The translations under genes and the position numbers were made by a program. A DNA stretch of 64,000 nt, taken from Nitrospirota bacterium. Lineage in GTDB: Bacteria; Nitrospirota; UBA9217. Position 1 is the stretch's first letter; every line of letters begins with the position of its first letter. The DNA is taken from NCBI GenBank assembly GCA_963741205.1, contig CAVUHW010000030.1, positions 32,001 through 96,000 of the forward strand. Direction: 5' to 3'. Under the pieces are notes generated by a model. That model was not told where the DNA came from. It saw nothing but the letters and a program-made list of their open reading frames with translations, and made no database searches. Shown piece by piece: positions 31,257 through 61,514 of this stretch.

Positions 31257-31264
31257 AACCTTTT

Positions 31265-35899: not shown

Positions 35900-36451
35900 T
35901 TAGTCGGACACAACGGTAAAGTCATCTCTTCTGTTCTTCTGCCAGCAGCTTTCGGTACTCTCGGTACAACTCGACTTTTCCTTTCCGTAGCTGATAAGCA
36001 AAATACGCTGTCCGGAAATGCCCATATCGGTAAGATATCTTTTCGCGTTTGCCGCGCGACGCTGGCCGAGGGTCTGGTTATACTCAATAGTCCCCCGTTC
36101 ATCGCAATTACCCTCGATCCTAACCTTTATTTGCGGGTGAGCCTTGAGCCATTCCGCATTCGCCTTCATGATCTCACCGGCTGCAGCCTCGATAAAAGCC
36201 TGGTTAAAATCAAAATAGACAGGCCGAAGGCCGGCATGAGCGGAGGCTGCCCGCTCCTTGGCTTCTTCAGGCTTTGCTGCTTCCGACTTCTGCTCGGGTT
36301 GAGCCGTCGCTGTTGCAGCGGGCGTCTCTTCCCGTGGTGTTTCAGGTACAGCCGAAATCTCGGCCTTTTTTGGACACCCCCAGAGAGCCAGCATTCCAAT
36401 ACATAATACAAACGTCAAATACCACGCCTTCTTCCTGTTTATCCCGTTCAT
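35900..36451 (-). CDS. pal: Peptidoglycan-associated lipoprotein
   Basis: Lipobox LWGC, VYFDFN, IEGNCDERGTIEYN, ISYGKE, KNRR. Confidence 0.92.
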   Translation of the reverse strand: MNGINRKKAWYLTFVLCIGMLALWGCPKKAEISAVPETPREETPAATATAQPEQKSEAAKPEEAKERAASAHAGLRPVYFDFNQAFIEAAAGEIMKANAEWLKAHPQIKVRIEGNCDERGTIEYNQTLGQRRAANAKRYLTDMGISGQRILLISYGKEKSSCTESTESCWQKNRRDDFTVVSD

Positions 36452-36504
36452 GTCGAATCCTCCTATGATTTTCGATGCATGCAATGCATCTTATTACTGC
36501 TTTT

Positions 36505-36788
36505 AATAATGTCGTCCCTCACGGCGTCGGACTACCCCCAGGCGATCCAGTCCCATCCCCAGCATTTGCGAGAAAGGGAGTTGTCTTTGCTGATTACGGT
36601 CTACGGATTGTCAACTCACCCTTATCCGGCATGGTATGAAGTACGTTCCGCATCTTGCGGTTCACGCTGCGGACTCGGTTCAAATGGAGCCAGCGTTCGA
36701 TCGTAATGGCCATCCCGACCACAAACACGAGGAGGATCGGGTACATGAACAACTCGCCGTCAAGATAATAGTCGGTCATCGTTTTCAA
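36505..36788 (-). pseudogene. Decayed partial copy of the ExbB/AglR gene
   Basis: FMYPILLV..AITIERW..DKGE / SQMLGMGLDRLGVVRRRE aligns with the N-terminus of 39277-39975. Confidence 0.75.
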
Positions 36789-36884: not shown

Positions 36885-38277
36885 CTAGCCTCCGGGCAGG
36901 AAATCAATCGGGTACAGAATCGTGGTCTTGGAAACTTTCTCCTTCGGTCCGAAGTTGAACTTCTTGACACGCTCCACAATCTGGGCCACAAGCTCCGGCG
37001 AGGCCAGATCGCTCGAATTCACCGTACATGCGGAGACTTCGCCACCCGGCTCGATGGATATGCACAGGAGGATCTTGCCGCGCAGGGTCGGGTTCTTGCG
37101 CAGTTCGGCATTGTACATCCGATAGAGCGTCGCCTTGTATTTATCGAAGACGATCTGTATCTCTTCGTCGGTTCGTGACGGCCCGGGTCCGGAACTGAGC
37201 GGCCTCGCCCCTTCAGCCAGCCCCGCAACCGAACTTTCCACCCTGGTAAAGCCCACACCGCCGATACCATTGCCATTGCCGCGGCCGATATTGCGGCTGA
37301 CTGCCGCATTGCTGATACCGCCGCTGGAGCCACCGCCCGTTGACGGCATAGCGACTAATGACCTGCTGGCCCGGGCCTGACCTGCCGACACAGCCGACTG
37401 GTTGCTCAGACGTGCCTCAGCGCCGAGCCGCGCAGCGGGAGTTTCTTCCATCAAATCTTTAAAAGAATCTTTGAAGGCCAGGACCCCCGTGCTCTCCGCT
37501 TTGACGCGCGCAGCCTGTGTTTCTGTAGTGGTTGGCTTGGGTTGCTCCTCCTTCGCTTTCTCCGGCGTCTTTTCCTGATCTTTTTCGGGCTTCTTTTCTT
37601 CTTTGTGGCGTTTAGGCACCGGCTCGGGCTTGGGCCGTTCCTTTCTCAGCATGGAGACCAGGCGTTCCGGAACCACAGCCACGGCCGGGCGGACCGGCGG
37701 CGGCAGTTTCCAAATGAGAACCACACTGCTAAAACAGAAACACCATAATAAAGCGACAAGCAACGCCTTGCGGAAGCGTTTTTCGTTCTCAGCATCCCTG
37801 CTCCAAGGCATGATTACGACACGATAAGGAACGGGCGAAATCTCCCGCTCTATGACGTACTCTTCCTGTCGCCGTTCTTCACGGGCGTAGGCATCACGTA
37901 CTTCTTCGTCGAGGATGTTCAACTCATCGTTACACCGGTTGATCTGCCCCTGGAGAGATGATTGTTTTCCCAGAATCCCGCTGATCTCCCCCTCAAAACG
38001 GGCGAGCCGGCTCCTCGCCCGTTCCAGGTGCCCGGCGACGCTTTGAGCCTCCGCAACTCCTTCCCAAAAGAGTTCATCCGCTTTCAGTTCCCCCAGCTTT
38101 TCGAGCGAATTGCAGGCGTCCCGCAAGGCATCGAACCGCTGTCTATCGGCGGAGAACGTTTCCAGCTCTGCATCTACAGCGCGCAACTCACCTGCCAGCA
38201 CCTGCTGTTTTTGCTGGATTTGCTCGATCTGTGCGTTCAGTTGCGCCAATTCCTCTGCTAATATGGTTAGTATTCAC
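36885..38277 (-). CDS. TonB-like AgmX/PglI C-terminal domain protein (GltG-like)
   Basis: N-terminal coiled coil, one TM, Pro/Lys/Glu-rich linker, C-terminus RTDEEIQIVFD..YNAELRKNPTLRGK..YPIDFLP. Confidence 0.82.
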
Positions 38278-38287
38278 GGCAACCCCA

Positions 38288-38793
38288 CTATTTATTCGTT
38301 TCCTTCTGCATGACGGCGAGGGAAATCTTTCCGTATCCAGAGGCCGTGCAGGTCGACATTATTTTTTTAAGCACTTTGAACGGAATTGTCTTATCAGCAA
38401 GCAGACGTGATTTCCTTGCCTTCGGCAGCCATCTTGAGTGCTTGCCTCGTATAATGCTACCAAGCTGTTCCAGTCGCTCTCGTTATTTCATAAACTATCC
38501 CGATGCTGTCATCGTAAAGTTTAGGGGTGTTCGATCACGGCTTCGCCCTGAACCATTACTAATTCGGGGGTGACCACGATCGCCACTGTTTCCCTTGGCT
38601 TGGTCTCCACAACGGAAGCGGGCAGCGCGATCTGCGCATCCGGCAAGGTGCTGTTGAATGAGTGAAAAAGCAGGAAGAACACCAGAACGCAAAGAACATC
38701 CATCATCGGTATCAGGTTTATACCCAGACCTTTGACCACTCCGCTTTTCTTGTTGTTTCGCTCCATCCGTTTCATACGTCTGGTATCTTTCAT
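38288..38793 (-). CDS. ExbD/TolR family protein (AglS-like), with indels
   Basis: INLIPMMDVLCVLVFFLL; ADKTIPFKVLKKIMSTC. Confidence 0.85.
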
Positions 38794-39296
38794 GGCGCGT
38801 CTCCTATGGATACCTTTGGAAAGAGAACTATCTTACTGACCTCTGTGCTCCCTTCCGCCCGCACATCGGCTTCACGAACCGCATCCATGACCTGAATCAG
38901 ATAGTCGTATTCGATCTTCGGCTCCAGCAGAATTGTCGCATCTTCCTTCTGCGGATATTGGGCCTTCAGGCGAACGAGCATTTTGGACAGCAGCTCAAGA
39001 TCGTATTTATCATCTTTTTTCGGAATCGCGGCCTCCACGCGTGACCCGTTGGCAATTTCCAGCCCTGCCTTGCGGACAATCACCTCGATGGCGAAATTCG
39101 GCTGGCCGCAGCCGCTCCGCCGGCGCTGGTCGGGACACTCAATTCCATGGATCGTAATGCTCATAAAGACGGCGGTGATGAGCAGAAAGACCACCAGAAC
39201 GGTAAGAATATCCATCATCGGTGTCAGGTTCAAGAGGTGCATGATATCCGTATCGAACTCTTCTTTTTCCCTTCTTTTACGAAATCGTCTCGACAT
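38790..39296 (-). CDS. ExbD/TolR family protein (AglQ-like)
   Basis: LNLTPMMDILTVLVVFLL; YDYLIQVMDAVR. Confidence 0.88.
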   Translation of the reverse strand: MSRRFRKRREKEEFDTDIMHLLNLTPMMDILTVLVVFLLITAVFMSITIHGIECPDQRRRSGCGQPNFAIEVIVRKAGLEIANGSRVEAAIPKKDDKYDLELLSKMLVRLKAQYPQKEDATILLEPKIEYDYLIQVMDAVREADVRAEGSTEVSKIVLFPKVSIGDAP

Positions 39297-39975
39297 GATC
39301 AGCTCCTGTCAAATTGACGCTTGCTAAAATTGGAGAACTGTCAAATTGGCGCTTGCTGGAACTGGAGATAATATTGAGCGCCTTTACCGATACCATCTCC
39401 AGGCTGTTCACAATCTGACCCGTGGCTGTTGTCAGGCGGGCATGGAATAGGAGAAGCGGGATCGCGGACATCAGACCGAAGGCTGTGCAGTTCATGGCCT
39501 CCGAAATGCTGGCCGCGAGCAGGGCGGCCTTCTCGGCGGGGCTCGCAGTGGCAACGGCGCCGAAGGCCGAGATAAGTCCCATGATGGTGCCGAGCAGTCC
39601 AAACAGGGTGGCGATATTTGAGAGCAGCGCCAGGTACGGCGTGCGCTTTTCCAATTGAGGAATTATCTCCATCATGCTCTCTTCCATGGCGATTTCTATG
39701 TCTTCCCGTCGCCTGACCGCCCCCTGGCGCGCCAGCCCCATCCCCAGCATTTGCGCCAGACTGGATTTGTCCTCGTTGGCTATTTCCCGGGCTTTATCGA
39801 ACTCTCCCTTTTCCAGCACCGGGGACATCGAATCCCACAGGTTTTGGTTTGCGACCCTGATGCGTTTCAATTGAACCCAGCGTTCAAACGCGATGGCCAG
39901 ACCGACCGACAACGTCAGTAGAATCGGAAACATGAAGAACCCACCCCCCTGGAAAAACCTTACTAGTGTATGCAT
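39277..39975 (-). CDS. MotA/TolQ/ExbB proton channel (AglR-like)
   Basis: ATLFGLLGTIMGLI, ISEAMNCTAFGL. Confidence 0.92.
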   Translation of the reverse strand: MHTLVRFFQGGGFFMFPILLTLSVGLAIAFERWVQLKRIRVANQNLWDSMSPVLEKGEFDKAREIANEDKSSLAQMLGMGLARQGAVRRREDIEIAMEESMMEIIPQLEKRTPYLALLSNIATLFGLLGTIMGLISAFGAVATASPAEKAALLAASISEAMNCTAFGLMSAIPLLLFHARLTTATGQIVNSLEMVSVKALNIISSSSKRQFDSSPILASVNLTGADHVETIS

Positions 39976-40012
39976 CTTTTTTCCTCCTTTTTTCGCTAAC
40001 GAGATAACAAAG

Positions 40013-40303
40013 TTATTTCTTGGTACTGACCTCGAAAAAATCCAATTGCCGCTTAAAAACATCCCGATCCACTGGCACGGCACTATCGGTTAACAGCATG
40101 CTCAAATTTGTCTCCACGCCGATTTCAGAGCGTTTCCAGGGTACGATATACAGGGCTTTCGGGGCTTCATCGTTACCGATGATCGACATGCCCGAAAGTT
40201 CTTTGGCCGCCGGTTCTTTGGCCGCCGGTCCATTGTCCTCGGCCATGGCCGTGCTGAGCAATGCCAGAAGCAGACACAGCCAAAGCAATAGATTCCGATA
40301 CAT
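40013..40303 (-). CDS. Small exported protein (GltF-like position)
   Basis: Signal peptide; IIGNDEAPKALYIVPW. Confidence 0.7.
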   Translation of the reverse strand: MYRNLLLWLCLLLALLSTAMAEDNGPAAKEPAAKELSGMSIIGNDEAPKALYIVPWKRSEIGVETNLSMLLTDSAVPVDRDVFKRQLDFFEVSTKK

Positions 40304-40322
40304 ATTCCCTCCTTCCTTTCAC

Positions 40323-41030
40323 CTAATGTTTGAGCCGTATGTGCAGCTCGGCAATCCATATTTTGGCCTGCGCGTCCCGGGGCATCCCCTCGCTGTAAAT
40401 CTCGAATTGTTTGAGAGCGCATTCCGGGTCGTTGAGATACAGATCACAGAGAATCCCGAGATTTCTATGGACGGGAAGATAGTCCGGGAAACTCGCGAGC
40501 GACTTCTCATAGATCTCCCGGGCTTCTTTAAAGCGGCCGCCCTTGCGAAGCAGCAACCCGTATTCATTACTGGCCACGGGGTGATTGGGAACCAGTTCCA
40601 GAGCGGTTTTGAGGTTCTGCTCGGCCGGCTCCAACTTTCCGGTCCGCATGTAGGCCACTGCAATGTTGATATATGGCGCAGTGACGCCAGGTGACCGCTC
40701 GATCACCTTTGTCAGAAGTTCGATGGCCTTGTCATTTTTCCCGTCGTTCATCATGGCGACGGCGCGCTCGAATTCGCCGCGCGACTCAGCATCCATACCC
40801 GGGTTTTCCCGGATGACGAACCCTTGCCGGCCATCTTCGAGCCGCGCCACGGATGGCCCCTGATCTATAATGGGAACGGGCTGCTGCGTGACTTTGGCGC
40901 TGGTTGCACACCCGGAAACTACCGCGAGTACCATCACCAGCGCCGCCCACCCGGCCCGCCATCGCACTTTCGACCACCAGAACAGCTCTGCATTCTTGAT
41001 CTGCATAGCCCAGCTCCCTATTTCGTTCAC
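40323..41030 (-). CDS. TPR lipoprotein (GltE-like)
   Basis: Lipobox VSGC; TPR helices (NLGILCDLYL). Confidence 0.8.
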   Translation of the reverse strand: MNEIGSWAMQIKNAELFWWSKVRWRAGWAALVMVLAVVSGCATSAKVTQQPVPIIDQGPSVARLEDGRQGFVIRENPGMDAESRGEFERAVAMMNDGKNDKAIELLTKVIERSPGVTAPYINIAVAYMRTGKLEPAEQNLKTALELVPNHPVASNEYGLLLRKGGRFKEAREIYEKSLASFPDYLPVHRNLGILCDLYLNDPECALKQFEIYSEGMPRDAQAKIWIAELHIRLKH

Positions 41031-41037
41031 CTGAACC

Positions 41038-44000
41038 TTATTCCACCTTCACATCGGCCGGGGTACCCTTGTCGCCGCTGTCGCCCGCTCCCGGCGCCTG
41101 TTCTTCCGCCTTTGCTGCTTCTTTGGCCTCGGCCTGCTTGGCAGCCTGCATCGGTTCCGCGGCCTTCGCTACTTCTTTGGTCGCGGCCGGTTTGGCAGTG
41201 TGCTTCGGCTTTGCGACCGGCACCGCTTTTTTGGCTGCGGCCGGTTTTACAGCCTGCTTCCGTTTCGCAGTCGACACCGCTTTTTTGGACGCGGCCGGTT
41301 TCGCAGTCTGCTTCGCTTCCGCCGTTGCGTTCACCGCTTCTTTGGTCTCAGCCGGTTTCGCATCCTGTTTCGGTTCCACCACATTCACCGCTTCTTTGGT
41401 CTCGGTCGGGTTCACATCCGGCTTCGGTTCCACCGCGTTCACCACTTCATTGGTCTCTGCCGGCTTCACGTCTTGCTTCGGCTGTGCCGCTTCTGTGGCC
41501 TCGGCCGACGTCGGCCCTTGGGGCGTCTCCGGACGTTCAATGGCGAACAGGTAGCTATCCAACGAAGCGATGACGGGACTTTCCTCTTCCGGCTTGGCGT
41601 AGCGCGCGGGTACGAACATGGCCAGTTTCTCCAAACTCTTGTCGATCCACTCGTTGTAAATACCGACGGTCATCAGTTCAAGATTCTTTTCATGCATTTT
41701 GATGGCTTTATCCTCAAAGGGATAGGCCTGCTCCTCAATGGCAAGGTCATACTCTTCTTGTTCCAATGCGCTCAGTCCTGCGGGGCGTTCGGACTCCTTC
41801 AGGTCCTTGCTGAAGTGGGCATAGATCTCGGCCAGATAAAAGGTCGCCGCTGCCGTGACCTCGCCGACTTCATAATCGAGGAGTTTGTCAAACTGCTGGG
41901 TCGCAACCTTCATCAACTCCTTTTTCTTGCGCAGGTTGGTCTCGAATGGTTGGACCAGCTTGACTTCAGCGAACTGGTCGAAGGTTTGCTCGGCCAGAAC
42001 CATCGCGGCTTTGCCGGCAAGATAGCGGGTCCGTGGCGTACGCTCGCCCCCTGCGCCCGCATCAATGGCCACGATCTGCTTGAGCTCGGCGAGATAGATG
42101 TCTCGATCGTTTTTCTTCTTCAGAGCTTCCGCGATTTTGTTGCGCGTTTCCAGGTTGGTTTCCACCGGATGCGGGAAATATCCGACATAGCGCCGGTAAA
42201 CCTCGAGCGAGCGGTCGCTGTTGCCCGCCTGTTCATGCAGGTCCGCTGCGATCAGCAGTGCCTCCCGCCTTACCTCGTCATCCTGGGACTCTCTTTCTAT
42301 GCGTTCATACTCATTAGCGGCCTGCGTCAGCTGCCCATCCTCTTTATAGACGTAGGCGATCTTCTTGGTCACCTCTGGCTGCAATGCATGTCCGGGGAAC
42401 AGGTCCCGGAAGCCCGCCAGCACGGTGGCCGCCGTCTTCCAGTCCTTAAGCTGCATCAGGGCTGCGGCTGCATCGTACTCCGCGTTCACCCTGATTTTGG
42501 AGGCCGGAGCCATACGCCCCACCCGCAAAAAATGCTCGGCTGCTGCCCGATAATCCTTGCGGGCATTCGCTTGTTCGCCCTGCTTGTAAATCGATGCCGC
42601 AAGATTATCGATCAGAGCATCGCGGCTTTTGTCCCCGGCGGGGAGCAGCGCCAGCACATTCACGTAAGCGGTTTCAGCTTCGTCGTAGCGAGTGAGCTCG
42701 TAGGTTGAGTGGCCGACCACCAGCCAGGCTGCGCGCACGACCTCCACCTCGGCGCCGGGGAATGCCGACAGAAGCTTGCGTGCGGCCGCGACCGCCGGTT
42801 CATAATCCCGCATGTCGTACAGATCATCCGCAGCCGCCCCCAGAACAATCGCCGCCTTCTCATGCTCCGGATAGGTGTCGGCGAACTTCAGCGAGCTGCG
42901 TACGACCTCCCGCTTCACCTGATCTTTTGCCTCGGGCGCAACGCCGGCAAGATGTTGGCGATAGGCGTAAATTGCTGCGTAGCCGGCCTGCGGGGACTTT
43001 TCGTGACGCGGGTATTCATAGGCGGTCTTCTCGTATTCCACCGCCGCCAGATCAAAGGAGCGGTTTTCCAGGAACAGATCCGCCAACAGATAATTAACAG
43101 CCGGCGACTCGGGGTCCATCGGGAAGGAGGTGAGGAATTCCCGGTACCAATGCAGCGCTTCCTCGAAGTTTGCCTTCTTGTCCTTGATCTGCTGCGGACT
43201 CTGGTAAAGCGCATGATAATGTTTGGCCAGATCAGTAAGGTTCGTTTTGAGCCAGGCCAGAACTTCCGGACGGGCGCCGGTTCGAAATGCTGCCAGTATT
43301 CGGCCTTGAGCCCGTAATTGCGGGCAAATTGCTTTTTCGCGTCAATGACCAGGCTGGGGAACGCCCCGGCAAGATGGATTTCGATCACCCGCATGGCGAA
43401 TTGCGGCGATACCTTGTGGAACGGATTGCGGCTGACAAAGGCATTGTAGGTTGCTGCGGCGTCGGCGTAACGGCGCTTATCGAAGTAAAATTCCCCGAGG
43501 TTGCTGTAGACGCCGTCCTCGTAACTGCGCTTGCCGTGGCGGTTGAAGTACTCGACCACGGAGTTGGCGCCGCCGAGGTTGGAAAAACTCAGGCTGATGA
43601 CCCGGAAGGTGTCATCGATGCGCTTTCTTTCCTGCTCGTCCTTGGTCTGCGCGAAATCGTAGCCCATGGACACCTTGTAATCCAGCAGGGCAATGAACCG
43701 GTGCAGGGCCTCGTCATAGAGTTCCTGCTTGTAAAAGGTCCAGCCCAGCTTGTACAGGGCGAGCTGATAATAGGACGAAGAGACGCCCATGGCCACGATG
43801 CTGCCGTAGGCCTCCTCGGCATCCAGGTAATGCCTGCGGGTGAAGAAATATTCGGCGCGCCGGAACTGCACTTCATCCATATACCGGGATTTCGGATAAT
43901 CGCGCACCAGCCGGTTCATGACCCCCATGGCCTCGTCGACCTGCCCCAGTTCCTCATAGGCGCGGGACATCTGATACAGCACCTGATCGTTGCGCTCGTA

Positions 44001-44540
44001 CGCGGGATAATCGTTCAGCAGTTTCTTGTAGAGTTCGATGGCCTCAAGGGCACCGGCCCGCTTCAGGTCATCAGCACCTTCGGCAAGTCCGTCCGCAGCC
44101 GCGGCTGTGCCGGTCGCCGTGCTCTGAGCCGCCCTTTTCTCAAAATCGGCCTGCGCTTCACCCGGCGCTGGTGCAGGAACAGAGGAGCGCAAGGGCGCAA
44201 CCTCCGGACGCGCCGCACGTTCCGGAGAAGGCAAAGTCGCGGCGGAGCCCCTCCGCTCTGCTGCGGTATCGCCGGAAAGAACGCCATATTCCCTTTCGAC
44301 CTTCAGGTCTGCCAGGCGGCGAATAGCCTCCGGCTTCAGGGCCGCGTCCGGCGTTTCTTCCAGAAAGCGCCGGTAACCCTCCATGGCTTTCTCGAGTCCG
44401 CCTTCGATCTTCTCTTCCTTGATTTCGATCTGCATGGTTCGCAACGTGGCAATCGTATCCTTGCCGCCGACCGACTGACAGGCGCAGAGGAGCAGCGGCA
44501 GCGCGAGCACGCTCCATCGAAGACAATTCATTGTCCTCAT
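41038..44540 (-). CDS. Large TPR lipoprotein (GltD-like) with repetitive tail; frameshift near 43275
   Basis: Lipobox LCAC; many TPRs across ORFs 42915-44540 and 41038-43119. Confidence 0.82.
41100..41495 (-). repeat. About 7 tandem 18-aa (54-bp) Ala/Lys/Pro/Glu repeats
   Basis: PKQDVKPAETNEVVNAVE / PKPDVNPTETKEAVNVVE / PKQDAKPAETKEAVNATA... Confidence 0.8.
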
Positions 44541-46432
44541 TGCTCGGCCCCCTTCCGAAGTTGGGCCTTGCTGGCCCGGTCGTAACTGTCCGCCAGGGCG
44601 AAGCGCGCCTTGACCTGGAACTCTTCGAGCCGCTCGCGCCGCCTGGTGAGTTCATTCACGGCCATGACTTCAAGCATATGTCCCTGACGGGCCATCAATT
44701 CCTCCACTTTTTCCCGGGCGGCCGTGATCCGGGCCCGCAGGCGGCGGATCACCTCGTCATACCCTTCATAGCTTTGGGTGGCGGCCTGGCGGGTACGGAC
44801 AAAGGACGCGTACTGTTTGTGCAGCAAGTCGATGACGTGATTCAGATCTCGAAGATTTTTGTGCGCCTCCGTAAGGCGCTGGTCATATTCCGTATAAATC
44901 TTCCAGTCCAGCACTCCCCGCAGACGCCTGACGCGGCCCTTGACTTCGTCGCTTGTAGCCGCACCGCCTCTCGCGGACATGGCCTTCTCCAGCCGCGCGA
45001 TGCGTTCCCCGAAAATCCGCTCCGGCGCGGTCGCCAGGTAGTCGGGCCTCGGCGCCACCAGCATGGCCTGCAGCCGCTGTTCGATGCGGTCTCGCTGCTC
45101 CAGCCGCAACCGCATCTGCGAGTCGAGCCGCCTGAATTCCCGGTCGATCGCGGGCAGCAGCGGCTGGTAATACGCCCGGCGCTGCTCGATGATATCCTCG
45201 AAGGCGACCAGGTCCCCTGACCAGACCTCCAGTTTCTTGCGCAGCTGCTCAAGGTCGAGATAATTTTTCAGTGATTCCTGGAAATCATGGGAGGCCATCA
45301 AATCGAGCAGGTAGAATGTCTCGGGCGTTTCCGGCAGCTCGCGCAGCTTGACGACCCAGTTGGCATCCTGTTTCAGCTCTTCCCGGACGAGGGCTTTCAG
45401 AAATTTGCCTTCGCGGATACTGCTTGATCGAGGCGCCGAGCTTGTCAATCTCCTTGCCGAACGCCTCCAGTGCCCTGCCATACATCAGCGCCGCCTTGCT
45501 GTACACACCGAGCTTCCCATAGGCATAGGGGACGGCAAGCATGGCTTCCTGCACCGCCGGGTCCGTGACCTCGCGTTCGGCCAGGATGCTCCATGGCACC
45601 AGGGCATTTTCGAACCGTTCCCGGGAGGCGTCGGCCCAACCCGAACCGAGCAGCGCGCGGTTGGAAAACGGGCCGCTCAGGCGCACCCTGTCGAGCACCT
45701 CCTTGGCGCCCTCGAAATTATTTTCACTCATCAGCTTGTCGCCGAGAACGAGGTTCGATTTGTCCCTGATCGCCAGCGTGGCCGGATTGCCGCTCTCAAT
45801 CCGGCCGGTACGGTCGAGATACTCGCGCCCTTCCCGCACCTTCCCGCTCTTGAGCAGCGCGATCCCGAGGTTGTACGTGGTAAAACCTTCCAGGCTCTTC
45901 GCCCCTTGGAGTTCTTTCAGAATGCGGGCTGCATCGTCGAAGCGGCCGTTGGCCATGAAAATTTGCGCCCGCAGGAAAGCCAGATCATCGCGAATATCTT
46001 CGGGAACGGCGCCCTTGATGCGTTCCACGGCCTGCAGGGCGTTCTGCGGCTGGTCTTTCTGGAAGTAAATCCGGGCCAGGCGGAAAATGGCCTCGTTGCG
46101 CACCGGCTCCTCGACATTGCCCTCGATCACCGCCTTGATGGCGCGCCCGGCACGCTGGTGCATCCGGTATGCCAGTTCGAAATCACCCACGTCAAACTCC
46201 GCCTGGTTGATATGGTAATGAAGGGTGTCGCGTTCGGGTTCATCGACCCCATAGTGCTGCATAAGCTCGGTGTCGAGCCTGGCGACGGCATCGAACCAGT
46301 CCCCTTGAAATGCGTAATAAAGGGCCTCTCCGAAATAGAGATCCTTCAGTTCTTTCGGAGCGGACGAAGCCAGCCGCTCGCCGAAGACGCAGAGAATATC
46401 AGAATTGTCAATGATATAAGCAGCCTGTTCAT
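44537..46432 (-). CDS. Exported TPR/coiled-coil protein (GltC-like), with indels
   Basis: Signal MNRLLISLTILIFSAS; KDLYFGEALY; C-terminus ARFALADSYDRA. Confidence 0.75.
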
Positions 46433-46435
46433 GGT

Positions 46436-46952
46436 CTACCTGTCATGAAGGGTAATGCTTTGGGCGGCCAGAGATATTTCCACGATCTTGGGGCCCACAT
46501 CCTTGTTGACCTTGAAGCTCTCCGATTTTTGGAAATCGGTGCCTCCCCCGGTTTTCCCGATGACAACAGACCTGGAGATCATGCTCGCCGGACCGGACAT
46601 TGCCGGTATAGATGCGCTGCACCCCCCCCTTCTGCAAGGCTTCGAGTTCCTTGAAGGAGTAAAGGTGATGGGCAACCGGCTTGCCGTCCAACTGGATCTC
46701 GACCGAGTCGAGACGGAAGGTTTCGCCGCTGACCAGTGATACGAATACCGCGACCTGCGTATTGGACGGATACAGCAGCTTCTCTTCAAGCTGATTCAGT
46801 TCCGCCGCAATGCCCAGAACATCGCTCTTGATTTCCTGAACCTGCTCATCCAGGCCCTTGATCTGTTCCCGGGAGATTTCCTCCGCATAGGCAGGGAAGC
46901 CCAGCATCAGCACGGCAATGGACAGGATGAACCCTCGTAATATGTGGAACAT
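46436..46952 (-). CDS. Exported hypothetical protein (coiled coil + beta domain), indel near 46570
   Basis: Signal peptide; LEEKLLYP, HHLYSFKELEALQKGGVQRIY. Confidence 0.75.
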
Positions 46953-46984
46953 GGCTGCCTCCTGGTTCGAGTCAATTTCCTTTT

Positions 46985-49900: not shown

Positions 49901-52123
49901 TCGTCCCGCCTTTCTTCGGAATATTGTCTACGACGAGGTGATTTTCGCCGTAGCCGACCAGCAACTCCCTTTCTCCGTCGTGGTCCTGAATATCCGCAGG
50001 CTGCCTGTCAATGATCCAGATCGGCAGCGGCTGGGTCTCGTCGAAATTGTTCGACGCGTCGTAGACACGCAGCACGTATTTCAATTCGCGCCCGGGGGCC
50101 TTGTATTCGGGGAAGGTCGGCTGCCACTCTGCGCGGCCATCCTTGTTGACCTCGATGACCGCAAGGGGTGTGTCGTTTACCGACTCCAGCGCGTCGAAGA
50201 TGCGAATTTCCGCTTTCTTGATAAAACTCGCGTAGTTCGTGTAGGTGCGGAACCGCATCAGGTTTTCCGGGTATTCGGTATTCGGGTCGTCCTGATAACG
50301 AATGGAATTCGGCCAGGCCGTCACATTCAGTCGGGGTTTCAGCTCAAGATTGTCGAATTTGAATTGCACATTCGCCTTGTCCAGGGCCACGTCGGTACAC
50401 CGCTCGATATCGGCGATGCTCTTGCCCGGATCGTCGACCGGCTTGCCGTCGACGGTGATGCGCATGAGGTTCAGCGCAAGGGGATCCTTCGGAGTGACCT
50501 CACGCGTGAAGCGCGTGATATCCAGTCCCTCGGTGCCGTCAAGAGCCAGCAGCTCGTCATACACGACCTGCACTTCGACGCGCGCCGTATCGGATTCGAC
50601 AAAGCCCGTATTGACCACGTCGTCCGATTGCACATAACCGCGTCCCTCGAACTCCACCTGACCATCCTTCAGACCCGACTGCTCTTCGACGGCATTCATG
50701 GCCCGGCGGGCACGGGCGGTCGAAAGACCGATATCGTCACCGTATACCGTCGCAGTGCGGCGATCGAGGCGCTCGTCGTTGGTATAACCGATGAAGCGGA
50801 GTCGCACCTTCTCTTTGTCGCGAATCTCATCCATGCTGCTGATCAGGCGCTCCAGGTGTTCCGACGTAATGACCGGCTTCCCCTGCTCAAACAGGATCGG
50901 CTTGACGCCGCCGGACGGCGAATCGTAAACGCGAGTCACTGTTTCCACACCCACGGCTTCCGGGCACATCTGCGGCTCGTCCGACAGCTCCTGCAGGGCG
51001 TCGTCATACCAGAATTCGACTTCGATGCGTCGATTGAGCGCCCGGCCTTTCTCGGTGTCGTTCGAGGCGATGGGATTGGCCGCGCCCTTGCCGTCCACGT
51101 CGATCTCCGACGTCGGGAGTTTCAGCGCATCCTGAACGGCGAGCGCCGCCCGCCGCGCCCGCGCCTTCGACAAGGCCACCACGTTACCGTAAATTCGCTC
51201 GGTCCGCCCCTCAAGTGGCAGGTTGTCGGTGTATCCGGTGAATTTGACTACGAGGTGCTCCTTCGCCCCCAGGTTGGTGAGCGCCTGCCGCACCTTTTGG
51301 ACGAATTCCCCGGGGACGGCCGTCGTGTCATCGTCGAAGTGGAGCGGCTCCACCAGGTTCTTGATGCGGGCGCGCTTTGAGTGCCCCTCCTTGTAGCGCA
51401 ACTTGCACACCGTCTCGACGCGGCACACCTTTACGCGATTCATCTGCTCCGCAACGACCACCTCTTTGTCCACCAGTTTATCGGTGATCTCGTCGTACCA
51501 GACCTCGACTTCGACCCGCCTATTGAGCGCCTTGCCTTGCTCGGTGGCGTTGTTCGCTACCGGCTGGGATTCGCCCATGCCCTCGTAAGTAATCGACTCG
51601 GGCGGAAGATGGAGGGCCTTCTGGAAATACTCGGCGGTGACTCCCGCGCGTTCTCGCGATAAGCGTGAGATTGTCGCCGTACTTTTGCTTCACTTCTCTG
51701 AATAGCTGCGCGTTGTCCGAGTGCCCCACGAAATGCAACCGGACGTTGTTGCGTCCTTTCATGCCGTCGAGCACCTCGCGCAGACGCTGGACATAACCTA
51801 TCGGGAATCTCCGCTTCTCCGGATGCAAAGTGAATCGGCGGAACGAGGTTCTGCACTTTGATGGTCTTGACCGCTTTTTCCAGAACCTTCTTCACTTCGA
51901 CTTTGTCTCCCTGCTTATCGTCCCCGTCCCCACCGTGCACCCATAAGGTGCGCGGCTCATCGGTTCCCGCTTGTTTCTCGACCGCCTGGCCGAGAGCAGG
52001 CGCCTGCATCACGCCTGTTTCCGCAGCCATCAGCGGGGCCGAAACAGCAGCCGTGTTCGTTTCCGCCATCGCCACGGCGGAAACGAGACACGAAACACCG
52101 ATGAGTGAGATCCGCTTCAGCAT
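46985..52123 (-). CDS. Large outer-membrane protein: signal peptide, ~3 OmpA-like domains, C-terminal beta-barrel (indels near 51800, 51650, 49870)
   Basis: FVGHSDN..NRRVEV, FTGYTDN..NRRIEV, FIGYTND; amphipathic strands ending GLFINVVGQF. Confidence 0.85.
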
Positions 52124-52161
52124 ACCCCTTGATTTCCCTTAAAAAAACATCGTAACGACCG

Positions 52162-55100
52162 TTATTGCCCGTTGTTCTCCACCGAACTTCTCGCGGGAGG
52201 TCCACCACGCCGCCAGAAGATTTCGGTCTCGATCGTCAATTCGTAGCTTCCTTGCTCCCATCGATCCGTGATTTCACGCTTGAGCGCCTCGGTGCGCGCC
52301 TTCACAACTGCCTGATCCTCCACATCCGCGAGGTACGAGATACGGAGAATGGCCGGCGCTTTGCGCAATTCGCCGAGCAGCATCTCGATTCTCGGTTTCC
52401 ATTGCGGCCGCATCTCGGTGGATCCCGGCTCGAACACGCCATCCGCGATGTCCAGGCTCACGACGCGGTGCAGCGTCGCGCCGAAGTTGAACTTTATCGC
52501 CTTACCTCGGGTCAGGCGCTGCACGAGCGGGTTCTGGGTGGTGACGCGATAACCCGTCGGCAGCGTGCGGTCATCGAGTTTCAAGATGAAGTTGCTGCCC
52601 CGATCCTCGTTGGGGACCGCGGCGCAAGTGATGTGGAAACGACCGTCCTTGTCCGTCGTCACAATGAGACCCCGCGCGCTCACGATCCGCACCCCGCCCA
52701 GGCCTTTTTCTCCCTCATCGGGGTAGCCGTTGGCGTTGGCATCATCGAACACCTTTCCGATGATGTCCGTACAATCGAAGGTGGGATCGGGAACGATGCG
52801 CACTCTCGCCGTCGCCACGGTGGTCATGGCTTCACCCGTAGTGCTGCTAAGTACCTGCGCGCTGTTGTCGTAGTTACCTTCCTTAACGCCCGCGCCCACG
52901 ATGAGCAGCAGCTTGATTGTGTGATCGCCGTCCGTGAGCTGGAGATTGTCCCAGCGCAGGTCGCTCGTGGTTTTCACGGGCTCGAGCCGGTTGCCGTCGA
53001 ATCGGGCGGAACCGTCGACATATTTGAATCCGGGCGGGAAGCGATCCACGATGGTGAGATTCGACAGAGTCGCGCCCAGTGTGTTCTTGACCGTGATCGT
53101 GTACGGCACCATCTGCCCACGCGAAACATTGAGTAGCAACGCCGTCTTCGTGATCGTGACTCCGGTGTTCAACGGGGGGTCTACGGCAATGTGATTATTG
53201 AAGAGCTCGATACCGCCTGCGGCGGAGTTGCTCAGCATGAAGTGCAGGTAGTACTTCGTGCCCACCGAATTCGCCGGGACGCTCGGCGCGGGGGCGAACT
53301 CGGACGGCTGCGCTTCGCAGTAAGATGTCGTCGCCGGAATGGCATCGTCAGCGGTGCCGGGGCATCCCGGGACTGAAAACGGCGGTGTAGGATCGGTTGG
53401 TGCAATAATGCCAGAAGGCGTGGGGCGGTACCCATTCGGCGGCGTGACGCGAATGACGTAGTCGGCCCCCGCCGGGCAGGATGGGTCGCTGAAGTTCAGA
53501 TCGAACTTGTAGTAGCCCGGCGCGAGCGTCACCTGGTTCTGCTGCGCCGGATCATTAAAGCAGCTCGCCGGAAGCGCACTGTTCGTCGATGCCCGCACCA
53601 TGGTTACGGTGGCGCCGGCAATCGGGGTGCGCCGGACCGAATCGTAAATAACGCCGCTAGGATCGATCGGCAGATTCAGATTCTGGAGATTACGGCCCGA
53701 AACCGCCGTGATACCGGAGATCCGTTGCAAGCCATTGGTGAATGCCGAGTCGGCGAGACCCAAGAGCGCCGTGCTCGTGGTAGCGCCGGGCGCACTGAAT
53801 CGGATTTCGTACTGATCGGCGGCGGTCATCGTGGGTGCGAGGCCTCTAAAACCGTACGCGCCGTCGGTGTCAGTAGGCATGCTCGCCAGCAGCTGGCTGT
53901 TCCGGTAGACCTGAACAGTCCAGCCGGCCAATTCCCTTTCATTGCTTTCACACGTTTTGTTGAAGTTCGCGTCGTGCCAGACACTGCCGTTCAGCATTAC
54001 GCTGCCGGGCGTGCCGCCGATATCCACGGAAGCGTTACTCGAGGCGTTCTGGTTGGGTGTGTTCCACGTGACTTGCGCCGTATTGGTCAGCGTCGTACCG
54101 ATCGTTCCCGACACGAGCTTGGCGTGGAATCGCAAGATCGCGGTTCCATTCGCGGGCAGGCTTCCATAGACCGACGAGTAATCCGCTATGATTACTGAAC
54201 CTGCGACAGTGATCCCGGCGCCCGAACTATTCAGCACCGCTGATCCCGGCACATAAGAGAGTTGGCCAGGCAGGGCATCGGTGATCACCACGTTGGTCGC
54301 CGGCACCGTGCCGATATTGGTCACGCGCACTGACATATTCGAGCTCGGCGCCGACTACGGCGGTTCCGCCACCAACGACTGCGACTTGCTTCGTGATCGT
54401 GAGCTGTTGCGCGTTACCTACCGCGATAACGGTCGGCTGGTAACCGTTGGTCGCGTTGCCATCCGAGTCAGTCAAAAGCGTCGGCAACTGCGTGGTCGAC
54501 GCACTGCCTTGGTTGCTGATGATCGTTCCGGAGGGCACGCCCGCGTTGACCTGTAGTCTGAAGGTCACGATGCCCGTGCCGCCTGTCGCCAGGGTGCCAC
54601 CGACCGACGGGGACGGCGGCGGGGTTTGGTCGGAGGAAACGACGCCGATGCCGCCTATGAGGGGCGATACGCCGGCGCCGGGATCTCCCACTGTCCGGCC
54701 GTTCATCACCAGCGAATTGGCCACATAGGTGGTATTGGCAGGAACGGCGTCCGCGAGCACCACGCCCGTCGCCGGAGTTGCCCCCGAGTTGGTCACGATG
54801 ATGGTGTACTGGAGCACATCGCCCGGATCGACGAGTCCATTATTATTGTTGTCCACGGCGAGCTGGACGGTCTTCAGCGCGTAGACCAATGGCAAGTTAC
54901 CCACAACGACCCTGGTCGGATCGTTCAGTACAGGGGTCGCTGGATTGTCGGAGGGTTGTTCGGGGAACGGTACCACTGCCTGCGCCGGAACCGTTTACAA
55001 AGCCCTGGTTGGAGATGATGGTGCCGTTAACGACGTTGGTGCTGATGCGCACGTCAAACGTGACCGTGGCCACATTTGTCGTAGCCGCGCTCGCGTCCGC

Positions 55101-58100: not shown

Positions 58101-60665
58101 ATTGGTATCAAACGCGGTGGAGCTACCACTATTGGGAATGGTGATCACATATTGGAGGACGTCACCTTGCGCGGCAGGATCGGTTGCCTGCTTGCCGGCC
58201 GAGACGTTGCTGACCGTCTTGGTGCCGCCGTTACTGCGGCTCGACCACCGTCATGGTGGAGGCGACACCTGCGCCGCCGGTCGCTTGCGTCGAGCTATTG
58301 CCGTTTACCTTGTCGTAGGTGTACGACGCGCTGTTTGTGAACGACACGCCACTGTGGTTGGTGGTGGTGTTCTGCAAGGCTACCGTAACCCTGATGACCG
58401 CCTGGCCGCCCGCGGGGATATCGATACCGGTGTTCAGTGTCTTGTAGAATGAGATTGGTGGCAGTGCCGGTATTGCTCAGGTTCCACGTGCCGCCGGATA
58501 CGACCTGTGCGCTCACAAAGCTCACGTTGGCCGGGAGATTGTCCAGGATCTTCACATCGTACAAGGGCACATTGACCGGGGTCTGCGGGCACCGTGATGA
58601 GGTAACTGAACTGCTGGCCGATCGTCGCAGTGCTCTGGGTATTCGTCTTCGACAGCGCTCCGGGCGCCTGGATCGTCACCGTGGTGGGATCCGCGTCGTA
58701 CCGAGCAGTGCCGGGCCGTTGACGTACGGGTCATCACTGACGCCGGACACGCTGCCGCTCGAGTGGTGCCGGAGATACTCGCCTGATTGGTGGCGATAGC
58801 GCCGTTCGTGAGGGGGTGCCGAGGCCAGGGTGACATCGAACTGGATCTGGTACTGCGGTGTTGGAAGCGCAGATTCAGACTGGTGATCGTAATGAGAGCC
58901 TGTGCCATTCGTGCCGCCAGTGGGAGTGACAGTAACTGTGGCGGTCGGAGGGAAGGTACTACTGCCGCAACGAGAGAGACGAGCCCGGGACGAAGGCCGC
59001 CGACGTGTTCAGGCCCAGGTCGTCGGTTATCGTAATGTTATTGAGCGGGGGGATGTTAAAGTTCTGGAGCTGCAGCGTGTAGCGCAGCCTGTCACCCGGA
59101 AAGGCCGCGGTGGCCGGGTTAGCGCCGGTGGTCAGGTCCTGGACCGACTTCAGAAAGTAATAGCCCGCCACCGTAGCCGTAACGGTGTAGGCGTCCTGGA
59201 AATCCAATACGCCCGGCGTGCCGTCGGTGATGCGTCCTGTCGTATTCGCGACGGCCGGTATAGCTGCTGTGCGGCACTGAACCACTTGGTAGCGCCGGCA
59301 ACGTTGGTAAGCGTGTCCGGACGAGATACCGGCGTCGAGCATGGCCTGGTAGTTGATGATCAAGCGCTGATTGGGCCCGATCTTGGCTGCGGCCGTAAGC
59401 ATGGTCAGGCTGAGCTGGCACGCAGACGCGGTACCGCCGTTCCAGGTGACCGAGAAGTCGGTGCCATTGACCAGCGGACCTGAGACCGGGGTGACGCCAT
59501 CCGCCGCAAAGATCTGAGCGGTGACCGTGGCCCTGGGATCGTAGGTGCACATGCCGGCGGGAAGATTGTCGGTGATCGTGGCGTTCCACGCATCGCTGCC
59601 GCCGATATTCTGGACGTTGATGGTGTAGGGCGCCTTGGTCCCCACATTCAGGTTAGACATCGAGCTCGTCTTTGTGACCGCGAGATTGGGCTCGGCGATG
59701 GCCATCGGCGACGAAATGCCCGACTGGCCCGGGAGGGGGACATAGTACCCCGTCGATAAGCCTCCCGAACTACCACGGGGCGGTGTTGATGAACGCCTTC
59801 CAACCGCGTTTGTCGGTGTGTTATCGAGGACGACCGTGATCTCGATCACGATCTGCGATCCGGCCGGGATGATGCGGGAAGTTAGCTGAAGGTCGAGGTG
59901 CTTCGTTGTCACCGATTGGTGAATGTACGCGGCACTGGAGGTGCCGCTGCCCTTCAGTAGGCGACTGATAGCTCACAAAGGTGAGATCCGCACCCGTCGC
60001 GGTGAGATTGTCCGTGACACGTGATGATGTCGCAAGTAGTTGGGCGATCCGACTGTTGTTGATGACGGTGCCCGTGGCCGGGTCATACATGACCGGGATC
60101 GTGAGCGTGTACGTGAAGGGCACGCCGATGGCTGGCCGTGGCTGCGGGGGACTGCTTGTGCGATGGTCTCTACGGGTATGAAAAGACCCTGACAGCTGTT
60201 ATTGGGGGCATATATCGCGCCGGGGTTAACAAACCAGATCTTGGTGGTAGTAGTGGCGCACGCCATATTACCGCTGTAGTAAATATTATTAAAAATCGCC
60301 AAGAACCCATCAGATTTAAAATTGAGGGTGGAAGTCAGCCCCTGCGGCCATTTGGCAGATATCGGAAAGTTCTCGAACGTACAATTAGCATCGATCCCGA
60401 TCGAGGAAGGAAGAGTAAAAGGAGTAAGAGTGGGATCATTACCGTCGATTATGTGGGAACCATTCACGAGGGGGTAGCCACTGCACAAATCCGTCCCCGC
60501 CTGCGCGGAGTAAGCCGCGCCCAGCACCAGGGCGAGGAGGAGCAGCAGCGGGAAACCGAGCCTGGAGCCGCGTGCCGTCAGGGCCGTAAGGAAACTTACC
60601 AACTTCCAGGCTTTTGGGTTCGAACACATCCGGAGCTTTTCCTCCTTTCTCATGGGCTGTAGCAT
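52162..60665 (-). CDS. Giant DUF11/pilin-like repeat surface protein (~2800 aa) with SdrD-B-like domains; many indels
   Basis: Signal-like LLLLLALVLGAAYSAQA; about 13 repeats of K(T/S)V..GD.L.Y(T)ITV.N.G..A.NV...D.LP; GKVFDDANANG..DEGEKG; Thr/Ser/Asn-rich. Confidence 0.8.
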
Positions 60666-60995: not shown

Positions 60996-61514
60996 TTACT
61001 TTCGGGCCAGGCTTCTGTAAGCGGAAGGCGTCTGGCCGGTCAGCTTCTTGAAGATTCGGCCGAAACCGGTTGCATCGGCAAAACCCAGGGAGACGGCGAT
61101 TTCGGTTATACTCTGGGGGCTGCTGCAGAGAAGGTTCTTTGCCTTCGTGATTCTGCGGCTGTTGAGATACTCCTGATAGGACAAGCCCATCACCTTTCTG
61201 AATATTCTCGAAAAGTGGGATGGGGACATGCCGGCCTCCTTGGCAACGGCGTCGAGACGGATATCGTTCCGGTAGTTATTATTGATATAACGAGCGGCCT
61301 GCTGGATCTTGTGATACTGGCTGAGGGTGACGGTGGAAGGCGGCATTCCCGGCTGGACCGACGTCTCGGACCCGGGAAGGATGTTCTTTCTGAAGGGCTG
61401 CTTAAGGTAATTGCGAGCGCCGTTCCTGATTGCCTCGACCGCCGCCTCCTCGTCGCCGTGTGCCGTGACGACGAGAACGAGAACGGAGTGCGCAACGTCC
61501 TTACTTTCTTTCAT
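60996..61514 (-). CDS. AraC regulator, truncated paralog of 61782-62663
   Basis: Intact AraC HTH (MSPSHFSRIF, SITEIAVSLGF, TPSAYR); receiver domain partly deleted. Confidence 0.75.
   Translation of the reverse strand: MKESKDVAHSVLVLVVTAHGDEEAAVEAIRNGARNYLKQPFRKNILPGSETSVQPGMPPSTVTLSQYHKIQQAARYINNNYRNDIRLDAVAKEAGMSPSHFSRIFRKVMGLSYQEYLNSRRITKAKNLLCSSPQSITEIAVSLGFADATGFGRIFKKLTGQTPSAYRSLARK

Follow-up and report, generated by a model that had tools for sequence, protein, structure and literature searches.

The window, a 64,000-nucleotide stretch of one contig (CAVUHW010000030.1) from a Nitrospirota metagenome-assembled genome (MAG; 50 contigs, 4.27 Mb, 84% estimated completeness), carries on its minus strand, between positions 36885 and 60665, a run of 11 co-oriented genes in which a motor of a known family is joined to an undescribed outer-membrane module. 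The module consists of a giant repeat protein, called the adhesin here, and a protein with three OmpA domains and a C-terminal barrel. The block that follows encodes an exported protein of ~170 residues, three tetratricopeptide-repeat (TPR) proteins, a second, smaller exported protein, an ExbB-type channel, two ExbD paralogues and a TonB-like transducer. All 11 genes are present in the order given in a preliminary description of the locus, which had been made from the sequence alone, and the long reading frames of interest in the interval are all on this strand. The same 11 genes are kept together in other genomes, through changes of gene order, and these comparisons provide good support for a functional coupling of the motor block and the adhesin–barrel pair in the clade to which the locus belongs. 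Compared genomes are given G-numbers (the source genome is G000) and loci are given L-numbers.

From their sequences, we assign the nine downstream genes, at the level of family only, to the Agl–Glt core complex plus two small exported proteins. Luciano et al. (2011; PMC3169522) described seven Group B genes (gltC, gltD, gltE and gltG together with aglR, aglQ and aglS) that are clustered in several Gammaproteobacteria, one betaproteobacterium, Geobacter and Fibrobacter. They named this cluster, which contains an additional gene, the ‘core complex’ and stated that its function was unknown. The complex is widespread in bacteria that do not glide, and its function was still called unknown in a preprint of 2020 (10.1101/2020.07.22.216333). 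We make the assignment because the transducer ends in an AgmX/PglI domain that scores over its cut-off, because the channel is accompanied by two ExbD proteins, because the three TPR proteins have the expected sizes and positions and because the same block is found in Methylibium.

The AgmX/PglI C-terminal domain (NF033768) was matched over the cut-off of 40 bits by the window protein (Table 1), by its counterpart in the relative G024 (60.9 bits) and in a search of the whole genome (63.1 bits), in which it was the only such match; none of 14 control genomes had one. An alignment of 18 orthologues gives the transducer a cytoplasmic coiled coil, one transmembrane helix, a linker rich in Pro, Lys and Glu and then the AgmX/PglI domain, with a total length of 454–478 residues compared with ~324 residues in the Marinobacter and Saccharophagus cores. 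The channel (PF01618) and the two ExbD/TolR paralogues (PF02472) are encoded by adjacent genes, and the second ExbD of G024 was matched in two frames of the window by tblastn. The sizes of the TPR proteins (~630, 1070 and 235 residues) and their order agree with the Marinobacter rows of Table S3 of Luciano et al., in which proteins of 648, 952 and 189 residues are mapped to MXAN_2541 (gltC), MXAN_4870 (gltD) and MXAN_4869 (gltE), respectively; this is a comparison by TPR content, size and position. TPR proteins of 939–952 residues are mapped to MXAN_4870 in the same table, and the Marinobacter cluster further contains an ExbB of 235 residues, ExbD proteins of 166 and 170 residues and a 324-residue protein mapped to gltG. 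By tblastn, the ~630-residue and ~1070-residue TPR proteins are 72–74% and 68–70% identical, respectively, to those of G024, and the intact GltD-like orthologue of G024 matches the YbgF model TIGR02795 with 129 bits summed over four stretches, which is above the YbgF cut-off.

The 96-residue exported protein (74% identity to G024) is encoded between the GltE-like and AglR-like genes, a position that marks its gene as the ‘additional gene’ of core complexes outside the myxobacteria. The ~170-residue exported protein has no match in Pfam or NCBIfam; it is 64–68% identical to its G024 counterpart in two frames (tblastn), it opens the core block in all three of the gene orders described below and it is also found in the Thiobacillus and Methylibium loci and in core-only loci. 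The same nine-gene block, with protein identities of 32–52%, is carried by Methylibium rhizosphaerae; the species listed by Luciano et al. is a different member of the genus, M. petroleiphilum, for which the supplement gives the core complex as Mpe_A1224–1231, with A1227 skipped in the list.

The resemblance to the Agl–Glt core pointed out in the preliminary description is thereby borne out, with two corrections. Firstly, GltF, which had been listed among the core proteins, belongs to Group A and is confined to Myxococcales and Bdellovibrionales (PMC3169522). Secondly, a comparison with Glt models, which had been proposed as a check, left every protein of the locus short of the NCBIfam equivalog cut-offs for GltG and GltE: the GltG model NF033760 is matched with 42.6–47.2 bits against a cut-off of 650, over the C-terminal part only, and the GltE model with 23 bits against 225 by the 235-residue protein in the GltE position. 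Of the NCBIfam Glt models, only those for GltG, GltJ (tail only) and GltE (weakly) matched any gene of the locus; elsewhere in the genome the search was for NF033768 only. No forkhead-associated (FHA) family of Pfam or NCBIfam was matched by the transducer. The locus thus shares with the core complex of Luciano et al. the ExbB/TolQ channel, two ExbD/TolR proteins, the AgmX/PglI TonB-like protein, three size-matched TPR proteins and the extra small gene, all in one operon, and differs from it in having the adhesin, the OmpA-barrel protein and the ~170-residue exported protein, none of which is part of the complex in the accessible text and supplement of that paper (PMC3169522).

The two genes ahead of this block belong together as a pair, as judged from their arrangement across genomes. 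A scan with the barrel alignment, using one genome per species, confirmed 266 of 294 candidate stretches; of the best 80 loci, which were kept, 65 have an adhesin match immediately ahead of the OmpA-barrel gene, and in the remaining 15 there is hardly any sequence on that side. In G001 and G002 the two genes are a single fused open reading frame (ORF), the longest open frames being of 4553 and 4442 residues, respectively; at the junction the adhesin runs into the mature OmpA-barrel protein, the signal peptide of which has been deleted. The frame through the barrel is open over 4291–4655 residues in four species of the genus of the window, and a Myxococcota-labelled locus looks fused too. This natural fusion places the C-terminus of the adhesin in one compartment with the OmpA domains, which for such domains is the periplasm. 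Among the 150 best representatives of the barrel family, 26 have at least 1900 residues, each with the barrel at the extreme C-terminus, and those long representatives that were scanned have DUF11, SdrD_B and SpaA repeats ahead of it.

The adhesin matches DUF11/TIGR01451, DUF7507, SdrD_B and the isopeptide-forming family TIGR04226, and intact orthologues have 3077 residues in G024 and 2887 residues in Methylibium. Isopeptide-forming domains give mechanical strength in Gram-positive pilins, and their presence in the adhesin would fit a load-bearing fibre. In 31 other loci, drawn from several phyla, the last ~230 residues share 58–87% identity with those of the window, and they finish in a conserved end, ...ETE[IV][FY]WRRGGPP. 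In many proteobacterial adhesins among loci L041–L098 a Cys-Cys pair (...NCCY...) stands ~25 residues before the ETE-x-FWRRG end; the Nitrospirota adhesins of this set, including that of the window, are without it. At the N-terminus (60500–60665, minus strand) there is a long two-part signal region of ~55 residues, also seen in G001 and G002, made up of an amphipathic/hydrophobic stretch, a basic patch and a hydrophobic core ending ...SAQA; it is reminiscent of the extended signal peptides found on large passengers of type V systems, and it has no Pfam match. A profile search of the PDB with the C-terminus of the adhesin found only the upstream SdrD-B repeat. The last ~100 residues might conceivably form a fourth, degenerate OmpA-like domain; hhalign gave the expected register, but with a probability of only 1.75% (E value of 0.028).

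The second protein of the pair has a signal peptide, a conserved N-terminal motif, three OmpA-like peptidoglycan-binding domains, a β-sandwich region and a C-terminal barrel of ~900 residues, in this order; intact orthologues in relatives have 1702–1719 residues. The OmpA family PF00691 is matched with 55–73 bits and TIGR03350 is matched in three stretches of the window fragment, while the C-terminal 958-residue piece has no Pfam match. An AlphaFold2 model of these last 958 residues, calculated from an alignment of 77 rows (69 of them cluster representatives from a profile search), has a mean predicted local distance difference test score (pLDDT) of 84.6 and a predicted template-modelling score (pTM) of 0.77; it is all-β, with ~42 long strands over residues 55–957. 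An earlier model from 41 close sequences had a pLDDT of 57 and was unusable. Foldseek returned large outer-membrane barrels only (SlpA, TonB-dependent transporters, LptD, MtrB and SprA), with TM-scores of 0.27 or below, and in a VIA-align comparison with 48,161 chains the top 50 matches were all β-barrel membrane proteins, nearly all of them from bacterial outer membranes (Z scores of 8.8–12.4). Many of these matches cover residues 52 to 958. Small porins are among them, and this is the pattern that pairing of the first strand with the last would produce. The protein ends in ...VVGQF. The C-terminal region is confidently modelled as all-β and is predicted to be a very large, putatively closed outer-membrane β-barrel of perhaps ~40 strands; the preliminary description had likewise expected this region to fold as a barrel. 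A profile search of 1.84 billion cluster representatives (clusters at 50% identity) returned 4187 relatives at E ≤ 0.001, 1515 of them at E ≤ 1e-30, and the barrel match is at the C-terminal end in all of the 150 best. The members carry source names such as ‘OmpA family protein’ or ‘flagellar motor protein MotB’, and together they make up a large barrel family that lies outside any Pfam model.

The N-terminal motif of the mature barrel protein (approximately LG-x-x-VE-[KR]-[QH] and then a tryptophan) was found in 45 loci and is retained at the fusion junction, and we regard it as a candidate docking site; it is unlike the TonB box. As a mark of core-linked barrels only, the motif was rejected, since there was no clean correlation: the strict pattern occurs in 66 of 108 near relatives of 1650–1899 residues and in two of 150 diverse representatives, those missed by it carry variants when inspected by eye, and other long forms, that of the non-adjacent G602 type among them, have related motifs. 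A prediction of the complex between residues 340–454 of the GltG-like protein (18 rows) and the N-terminal 75 residues of the barrel protein (31 rows) scored 0.00 in two runs, made without controls, and is uninformative either way.

A paralogous locus is present on another contig of G024 (L112, 8849–16920), where two near-identical 205-residue exported proteins and a related one of 207 residues are followed by a 1985-residue protein with Big_1/Invasin_D3, DUF11, SdrD_B, OmpA and Glucodextran_B domains and a barrel of the same family (25–27% identity). Sensor and regulator genes come next and no core is nearby. Proteins of ~2000 residues like this one are found in many Nitrospirota and gammaproteobacterial genomes.

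The core and the pair are physically linked in most of the genomes that have close orthologues of both. Among 301 Nitrospirota genomes, a GltD-like orthologue (at least 55% identity) was found in 27, a barrel orthologue (at least 54% identity) in 23 and both in 22; in 20 of these 22 the core and the barrel gene are within 6 kb of each other on one contig, and in the remaining two they are split by contig ends. All 11 genes are intact and in unchanged order in G024, G014 and G019. A GltD-like orthologue (51–57% identity) is also present in all 15 proteobacterial genomes that were reached through barrel loci. In these the core is located upstream of the adhesin, beyond a 10-kb flank, and not downstream of the barrel; the distance between the GltD-like and barrel genes is 15–22 kb by coordinates in 14 of the 15, with a co-oriented core–adhesin–barrel order in 12 and a divergent arrangement in two. 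Full gene sets were confirmed in the Thiobacillus and Methylibium loci. In a further sample of 400 genomes, from the class of a Cellvibrionaceae genome (the class sample), the high-identity pairs on the same contig were linked in five of five cases, on the same strand and with a spacing of 15–22 kb, and a sixth genome has them on different contigs. Three gene orders (adhesin–barrel–core, core–adhesin–barrel and divergent) therefore hold the same 11 genes together in lineages that span Nitrospirota and beta- and gammaproteobacteria, and the cultured, harmless bacteria Methylibium, Thiohalomonas denitrificans, Sulfurifustis variabilis and Pseudomaricurvus hydrocarbonicus carry the whole set.

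We lean towards a reading in which the 11 genes encode one envelope machine, the motor of which acts on the base of an adhesin–barrel display unit and thereby extrudes or gates, tensions, retracts or moves the fibre. The display unit would be formed at the outer membrane by a Sec-exported fibre of ~3000 residues of immunoglobulin (Ig)-like repeats and its 1715-residue peptidoglycan-anchored barrel partner; the fibre would be held by its C-terminal end next to the OmpA domains, on the periplasmic side, and its repeats would get to the surface by passing through the giant barrel or next to it. In the second module, AglR and the two ExbD paralogues would turn proton flow into movement of the GltG-like transducer, which would act on a periplasmic and outer-membrane TPR scaffold (GltD/C/E-like). 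Force would in this way arrive at the base of the adhesin–barrel unit, where it could drive or gate extrusion of the fibre or could tension, retract or move it. We infer the surface exposure of the fibre, its passage through the barrel, the contact between the motor and the barrel protein and the role of force, and the same applies to motor-driven export or display of the adhesin, as the preliminary description had proposed.

Such a machine would be a non-myxobacterial counterpart of the Myxococcus outer-membrane platform that presents CglB. In the Glt machine of Myxococcus, GltC and GltD connect to a platform of outer-membrane barrels that presents this adhesin (PMC11761067; 10.1101/2020.07.22.216333), and the M. 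xanthus Agl–Glt system, as described in the accessible text of these sources, resembles the locus in having a motor driven by the proton-motive force (PMF), a TonB-like transducer, a TPR scaffold and one or more outer-membrane barrels presenting an adhesin. The parts that are presented and that do the presenting are different. No homologues of GltA, GltB, GltF, GltH, GltI, GltJ, GltK or CglB were seen among the genes of the locus; the transducer has a coiled coil in place of FHA domains, and there are no cytoplasmic platform genes. CglB is a vWA lipoprotein whereas the adhesin here is a giant repeat fibre, and a barrel of ~40 strands with OmpA domains stands in place of the GltA/B/H/K platform.

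Several observations weigh against this reading. Surface exposure of the repeats needs one more crossing of the membrane in the fused proteins, where the periplasmic OmpA domains come after the repeats and before the barrel, and a purely periplasmic fibre has to be reckoned with. Co-occurrence of the adhesin and OmpA genes with the core, on which the preliminary description had staked its proposal, holds in this clade, across phyla and through rearranged gene orders, but it is not universal, and each of the two also occurs alone. Barrel relatives of 40–44% identity are found in G095, G077, G205 and G233 (~1430 residues, with an open frame of 1032 residues in G205), and none of these four genomes, that of G095 being a single contig, has a GltD-like match at E ≤ 1e-20; in G095, the only one of the four inspected in this respect, the barrel protein has one OmpA domain and follows an adhesin gene. 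In the class sample there is no GltD-like match in six of 11 genomes with a barrel type of 1200–1450 residues, or in G509, which has a frame of 2444 residues. In the opposite direction, G018, G141 and G239 have close core orthologues amid unrelated genes, and no barrel orthologue was found in them. A GltD-like protein is present in 77 of the 400 genomes of the class sample, mostly at 30–43% identity, and none of these divergent gammaproteobacterial cores has a barrel-family gene nearby on its contig; G602 has a long-form pair at a distance of 67 kb from a divergent core. Two divergent cores that were inspected have a different set of upstream exported proteins and a shorter transducer. Finally, contigs labelled Gemmatimonadota and Myxococcota also carry the gene set, and as single MAG contigs these may be mis-binned.

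The two inspected divergent cores (L116 and L117 in G455, and L118 and L119 in G467) have GltD-like proteins of ~40% identity and transducers of 314–327 residues. Upstream of each there is a co-oriented and conserved set that begins with a lipoprotein of ~900–980 residues and continues with exported proteins of ~260, 215, 175 and 350–380 residues, and this may be the partner module of the divergent core type. Since each occurs without the other, the core and the pair are both separable modules; as far as gene content can tell, the core therefore appears to be a module that combines with different partners and the pair one that is able to work alone, and the tight link is limited to one clade of the core and one clade of the pair.

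Pairs whose genomes have no GltD-like protein, and cores without a pair, also speak for the foremost alternative, which we consider to be unlikely. Here two independent systems would share one island, namely a self-sufficient type-V-like pair assembled by the β-barrel assembly machinery (BAM) and a core serving, for example, envelope maintenance, and they would be neighbours through joint transfer or regulation. The high identity between Nitrospirota and Proteobacteria (55–67% for the barrel and 51–57% for the GltD-like protein) shows transfer as a block, in keeping with this. Two unrelated systems would nevertheless have had to keep the same 11 genes together through three rearrangements, which is hard to explain without selection for co-inheritance, and the linkage frequencies (20 of 22, 14 of 15 and five of five) argue in the same direction. 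Moreover, the core-linked barrel proteins have extra N-terminal OmpA domains that are missing from the stand-alone form of 1424 residues.

The locus also has much in common with Tol–Pal: a TolQ/TolR-like stator, a TolA-like transducer, CpoB-like TPR repeats and OmpA-type peptidoglycan binding at the outer membrane. A tether of this kind, in which the barrel and DUF11 proteins link the outer membrane to the peptidoglycan, the repeats stay in the periplasm or at the inner face of the outer membrane and the core repositions the links without any secretion, is improbable, and we place it behind the reading with two systems. It is favoured by the 129-bit match of the GltD-like protein to CpoB/YbgF-like repeats, by the channel, for which TolQ is the best NCBIfam model, by the match of the transducer to TolA and by the Pal-like lipoprotein that adjoins the locus; the fused proteins, which place the repeats N-terminal to the periplasmic OmpA domains and have lost the internal signal peptide, are consistent with it as well. 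All of the Tol equivalog matches are, however, below their cut-offs (TolQ 70–76 bits versus 221, TolR 39 versus 127 and TolA 31 versus 59), and of the Tol–Pal models only that for Pal reaches its own cut-off, with the downstream gene as a single domain. There is no TolB-like gene in the locus, which has two ExbD paralogues and three TPR proteins, unlike Tol–Pal. A chain of tandem Ig-like domains of ~3000 residues, a length inferred from the domain count, would far exceed the width of the periplasm; the SdrD-B and isopeptide-forming domains, and the Big_1/Invasin_D3 domains of the paralogue, are types known from surface adhesins; and a barrel of ~40 strands is far larger than an anchor needs.

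A TonB-like transducer with ExbB and ExbD beside an outer-membrane barrel would also fit uptake, and the giant barrel could be imagined as a TonB-type gated import channel for a large substrate that the fibre captures at the surface. TonB-dependent transporters are among the structural matches, and the barrel protein has a conserved short motif at its mature N-terminus. We regard this as very unlikely: no Plug or TonB-dependent receptor (TonB_dep_Rec) family of Pfam is matched by the window or G024 protein, the TM-scores to the transporters do not exceed 0.27, the operon has no periplasmic binding protein or ABC importer, and the modelled barrel, with ~42 strands against 22, is about twice the size of such a transporter.

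As had been stated in the preliminary description, no family of the type I, II, V or IX secretion systems was matched in the locus or its flanks. One parallel is type V secretion, in which a large repeat passenger likewise accompanies an outer-membrane barrel, either as a separate gene product or as the N-terminal part of one chain that ends in the barrel; both the split and the fused arrangement exist, and the paralogue has Big_1/Invasin_D3 domains. The barrel here is ~3 times larger, peptidoglycan-binding domains lie between the passenger and the barrel, and a dedicated PMF motor is linked. Neither the Autotransporter family (PF03797) nor the ShlB/POTRA families of Pfam are matched by the window or G024 protein, and the β-domains of NalP, Hbp and BrkA appear among generic barrel matches only. 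In the type IX system, too, a giant adhesin at the cell surface (SprB) goes together with a PMF motor and a single-chain barrel of very large size (SprA). The SprA barrel has 36 strands, and SprA is among the structural matches. This match is weak (TM-score of 0.21), no type IX families or C-terminal sorting domain were found and the organisms are not Bacteroidota. The fused and split forms of barrel and repeat adhesin suggest a general route of adhesin display that matches none of the secretion-system families tested.

The reading frames of the window are broken in many places, and seven frame changes outside the adhesin were mapped by tblastn with intact orthologues (Table 1). Contigs from four other public runs (90–99% alike) have one-base indels at six of these seven sites (43275, 45423, 46565/46567, 49890, 51663 and 51800); at the seventh, in the second ExbD gene, a stretch is replaced (96 letters in the window versus 92), with a further one-base difference at 38406. 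Because of these indels, and because the orthologues are intact in relatives, the breaks are most likely to be long-read assembly errors and not decay. A decayed locus, with genuine frameshifts and a system that does not function in this organism, could be suggested by the frame changes, which number at least eight in the ten non-adhesin genes, with many more in the adhesin; this is the least probable reading of all, given the one-base differences exactly at six of the seven sites, the intact orthologues, the origin of the sequence from a MAG of 84% estimated completeness and the in-frame stops of a similar kind in several sister assemblies. Contigs of one metatranscriptomic library, a type of library that may contain DNA, cover all 30 bins of 38000–52200. 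In sediment and soil metagenomes the run shares are ~0.2, which is too small for naming a habitat.

Table 1. Genes of the locus and of its flanks (window coordinates).
Feature	Position	Strand	Evidence and state
Response-regulator receiver + AraC-type helix-turn-helix (HTH) regulator, 293 aa	61782-62663	-	NCBIfam receiver and AraC-family models
Giant Sec-exported β-sandwich repeat protein (adhesin), ~2800 aa	52162-60665	-	At least 10 ORF pieces in three frames
OmpA x3 + barrel protein, ~1715 aa	46985-52123	-	Three frame changes, near 51800, 51662 and 49890
Exported protein, ~170 aa, N-terminal part coiled-coil	46439-46952	-	One frame change; tblastn to G024
TPR protein, ~630 aa, GltC position	44537 to ~46435	-	TPR families; one frame change near 45424
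TPR lipoprotein, ~1070 aa, GltD position	41038-44540	-	CpoB/YbgF-like repeats; one frame change near 43280
TPR lipoprotein, 235 aa, GltE position	40323-41030	-	TPR families; lipobox-like VSGC read from the sequence
Small exported protein, 96 aa	40013-40303	-	Intact ORF; N-terminus signal-peptide-like
MotA/TolQ/ExbB-family proton channel, AglR-like	39277 to ~39975	-	PF01618, 87 bits
ExbD/TolR paralogue 1, AglQ/S-like	38790-39296	-	PF02472, 56 bits
ExbD/TolR paralogue 2	38303-38793	-	PF02472, 29 bits on the N-terminal piece; one frame change near 38500
TonB/TolA-type transducer, GltG-like, 454 aa	36885-38267	-	NF033768, 59.6 bits versus cut-off 40
Pal-like OmpA-domain lipoprotein	35900-36484	-	TIGR02802, 126 bits versus cut-off 125.35

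On the upstream side, an ORF of 286–293 residues with the same N-terminal sequence as the receiver–AraC regulator is found directly upstream of the adhesin in G024, G001, G002 and G014. In the window a 172-residue ORF with only an AraC-type DNA-binding domain (60996–61514, minus strand) lies between this regulator and the adhesin, and it may be a truncated duplicate or the second piece of a regulator broken by an indel. A CHRD-domain protein further out (63276–63830, plus strand; PF07452, 95 bits), on the opposite strand to the regulator, is unrelated to the present findings.

On the downstream side, the gap between the TonB-like and Pal-like genes contains a stretch (36518–36770, minus strand) with a match, in two frames, to the N-terminal ~90 residues of the G024 ExbB (45–52% identity); this stretch appears to be a vestige of the channel gene or a shortened second copy of it. 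The Pal-like gene is one of three in G000 that exceed the cut-off. A lipoprotein ORF of 196–209 residues follows the TonB-like gene in G001 and G014 and does not do so in G024, so the Pal-like lipoprotein is possibly associated with the locus, having been seen there only in near relatives. Beyond it, a TIR-domain protein (35194–35829, minus strand; PF13676, 47.7 bits) lies beside two ORFs without family matches (33748–34680 and 32995–33648), and the three may together form a small defence island. Cytochrome oxidase subunits I and II and a UbiA-type prenyltransferase (27535–32131) are unrelated to the locus.

No prior description of the association between the core and the adhesin–barrel pair was found in the open full-text literature; the gene neighbourhoods drawn in Figure S1 of Luciano et al. 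(2011) could bear on this. In the accessible text of a proteomics paper on Fibrobacter, a TonB/ExbB/ExbD cluster is treated as an uptake system and is not this locus. The accessible part of a force-transducer paper of 2025 does not mention Glt, and a paper on the type XI secretion system overlaps only through ‘DUF1194’.

Returning to the reading of the 11 genes as one envelope machine, a bolder extension of it, which we offer tentatively as possible rather than probable, is that powering a surface adhesin was the original job of the core complex. The motor, working through the TPR scaffold, would pull on a peptidoglycan-anchored barrel of ~40 strands, larger than any single-chain barrel solved so far, and would extrude, tension or move a giant isopeptide-stabilized fibre with a periplasmic C-terminus. 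If this is true, the locus would represent a new PMF-driven pathway for the secretion and display of adhesins. It would also represent the evolutionary starting point of the focal-adhesion gliding of myxobacteria, in which the adhesin-plus-barrel module would later have been replaced by GltABHK and CglB. The link that is conserved through rearrangements provides a concrete hypothesis for the core complex, which has been on record without a function since 2011, and this hypothesis can be tested in the cultured carriers.

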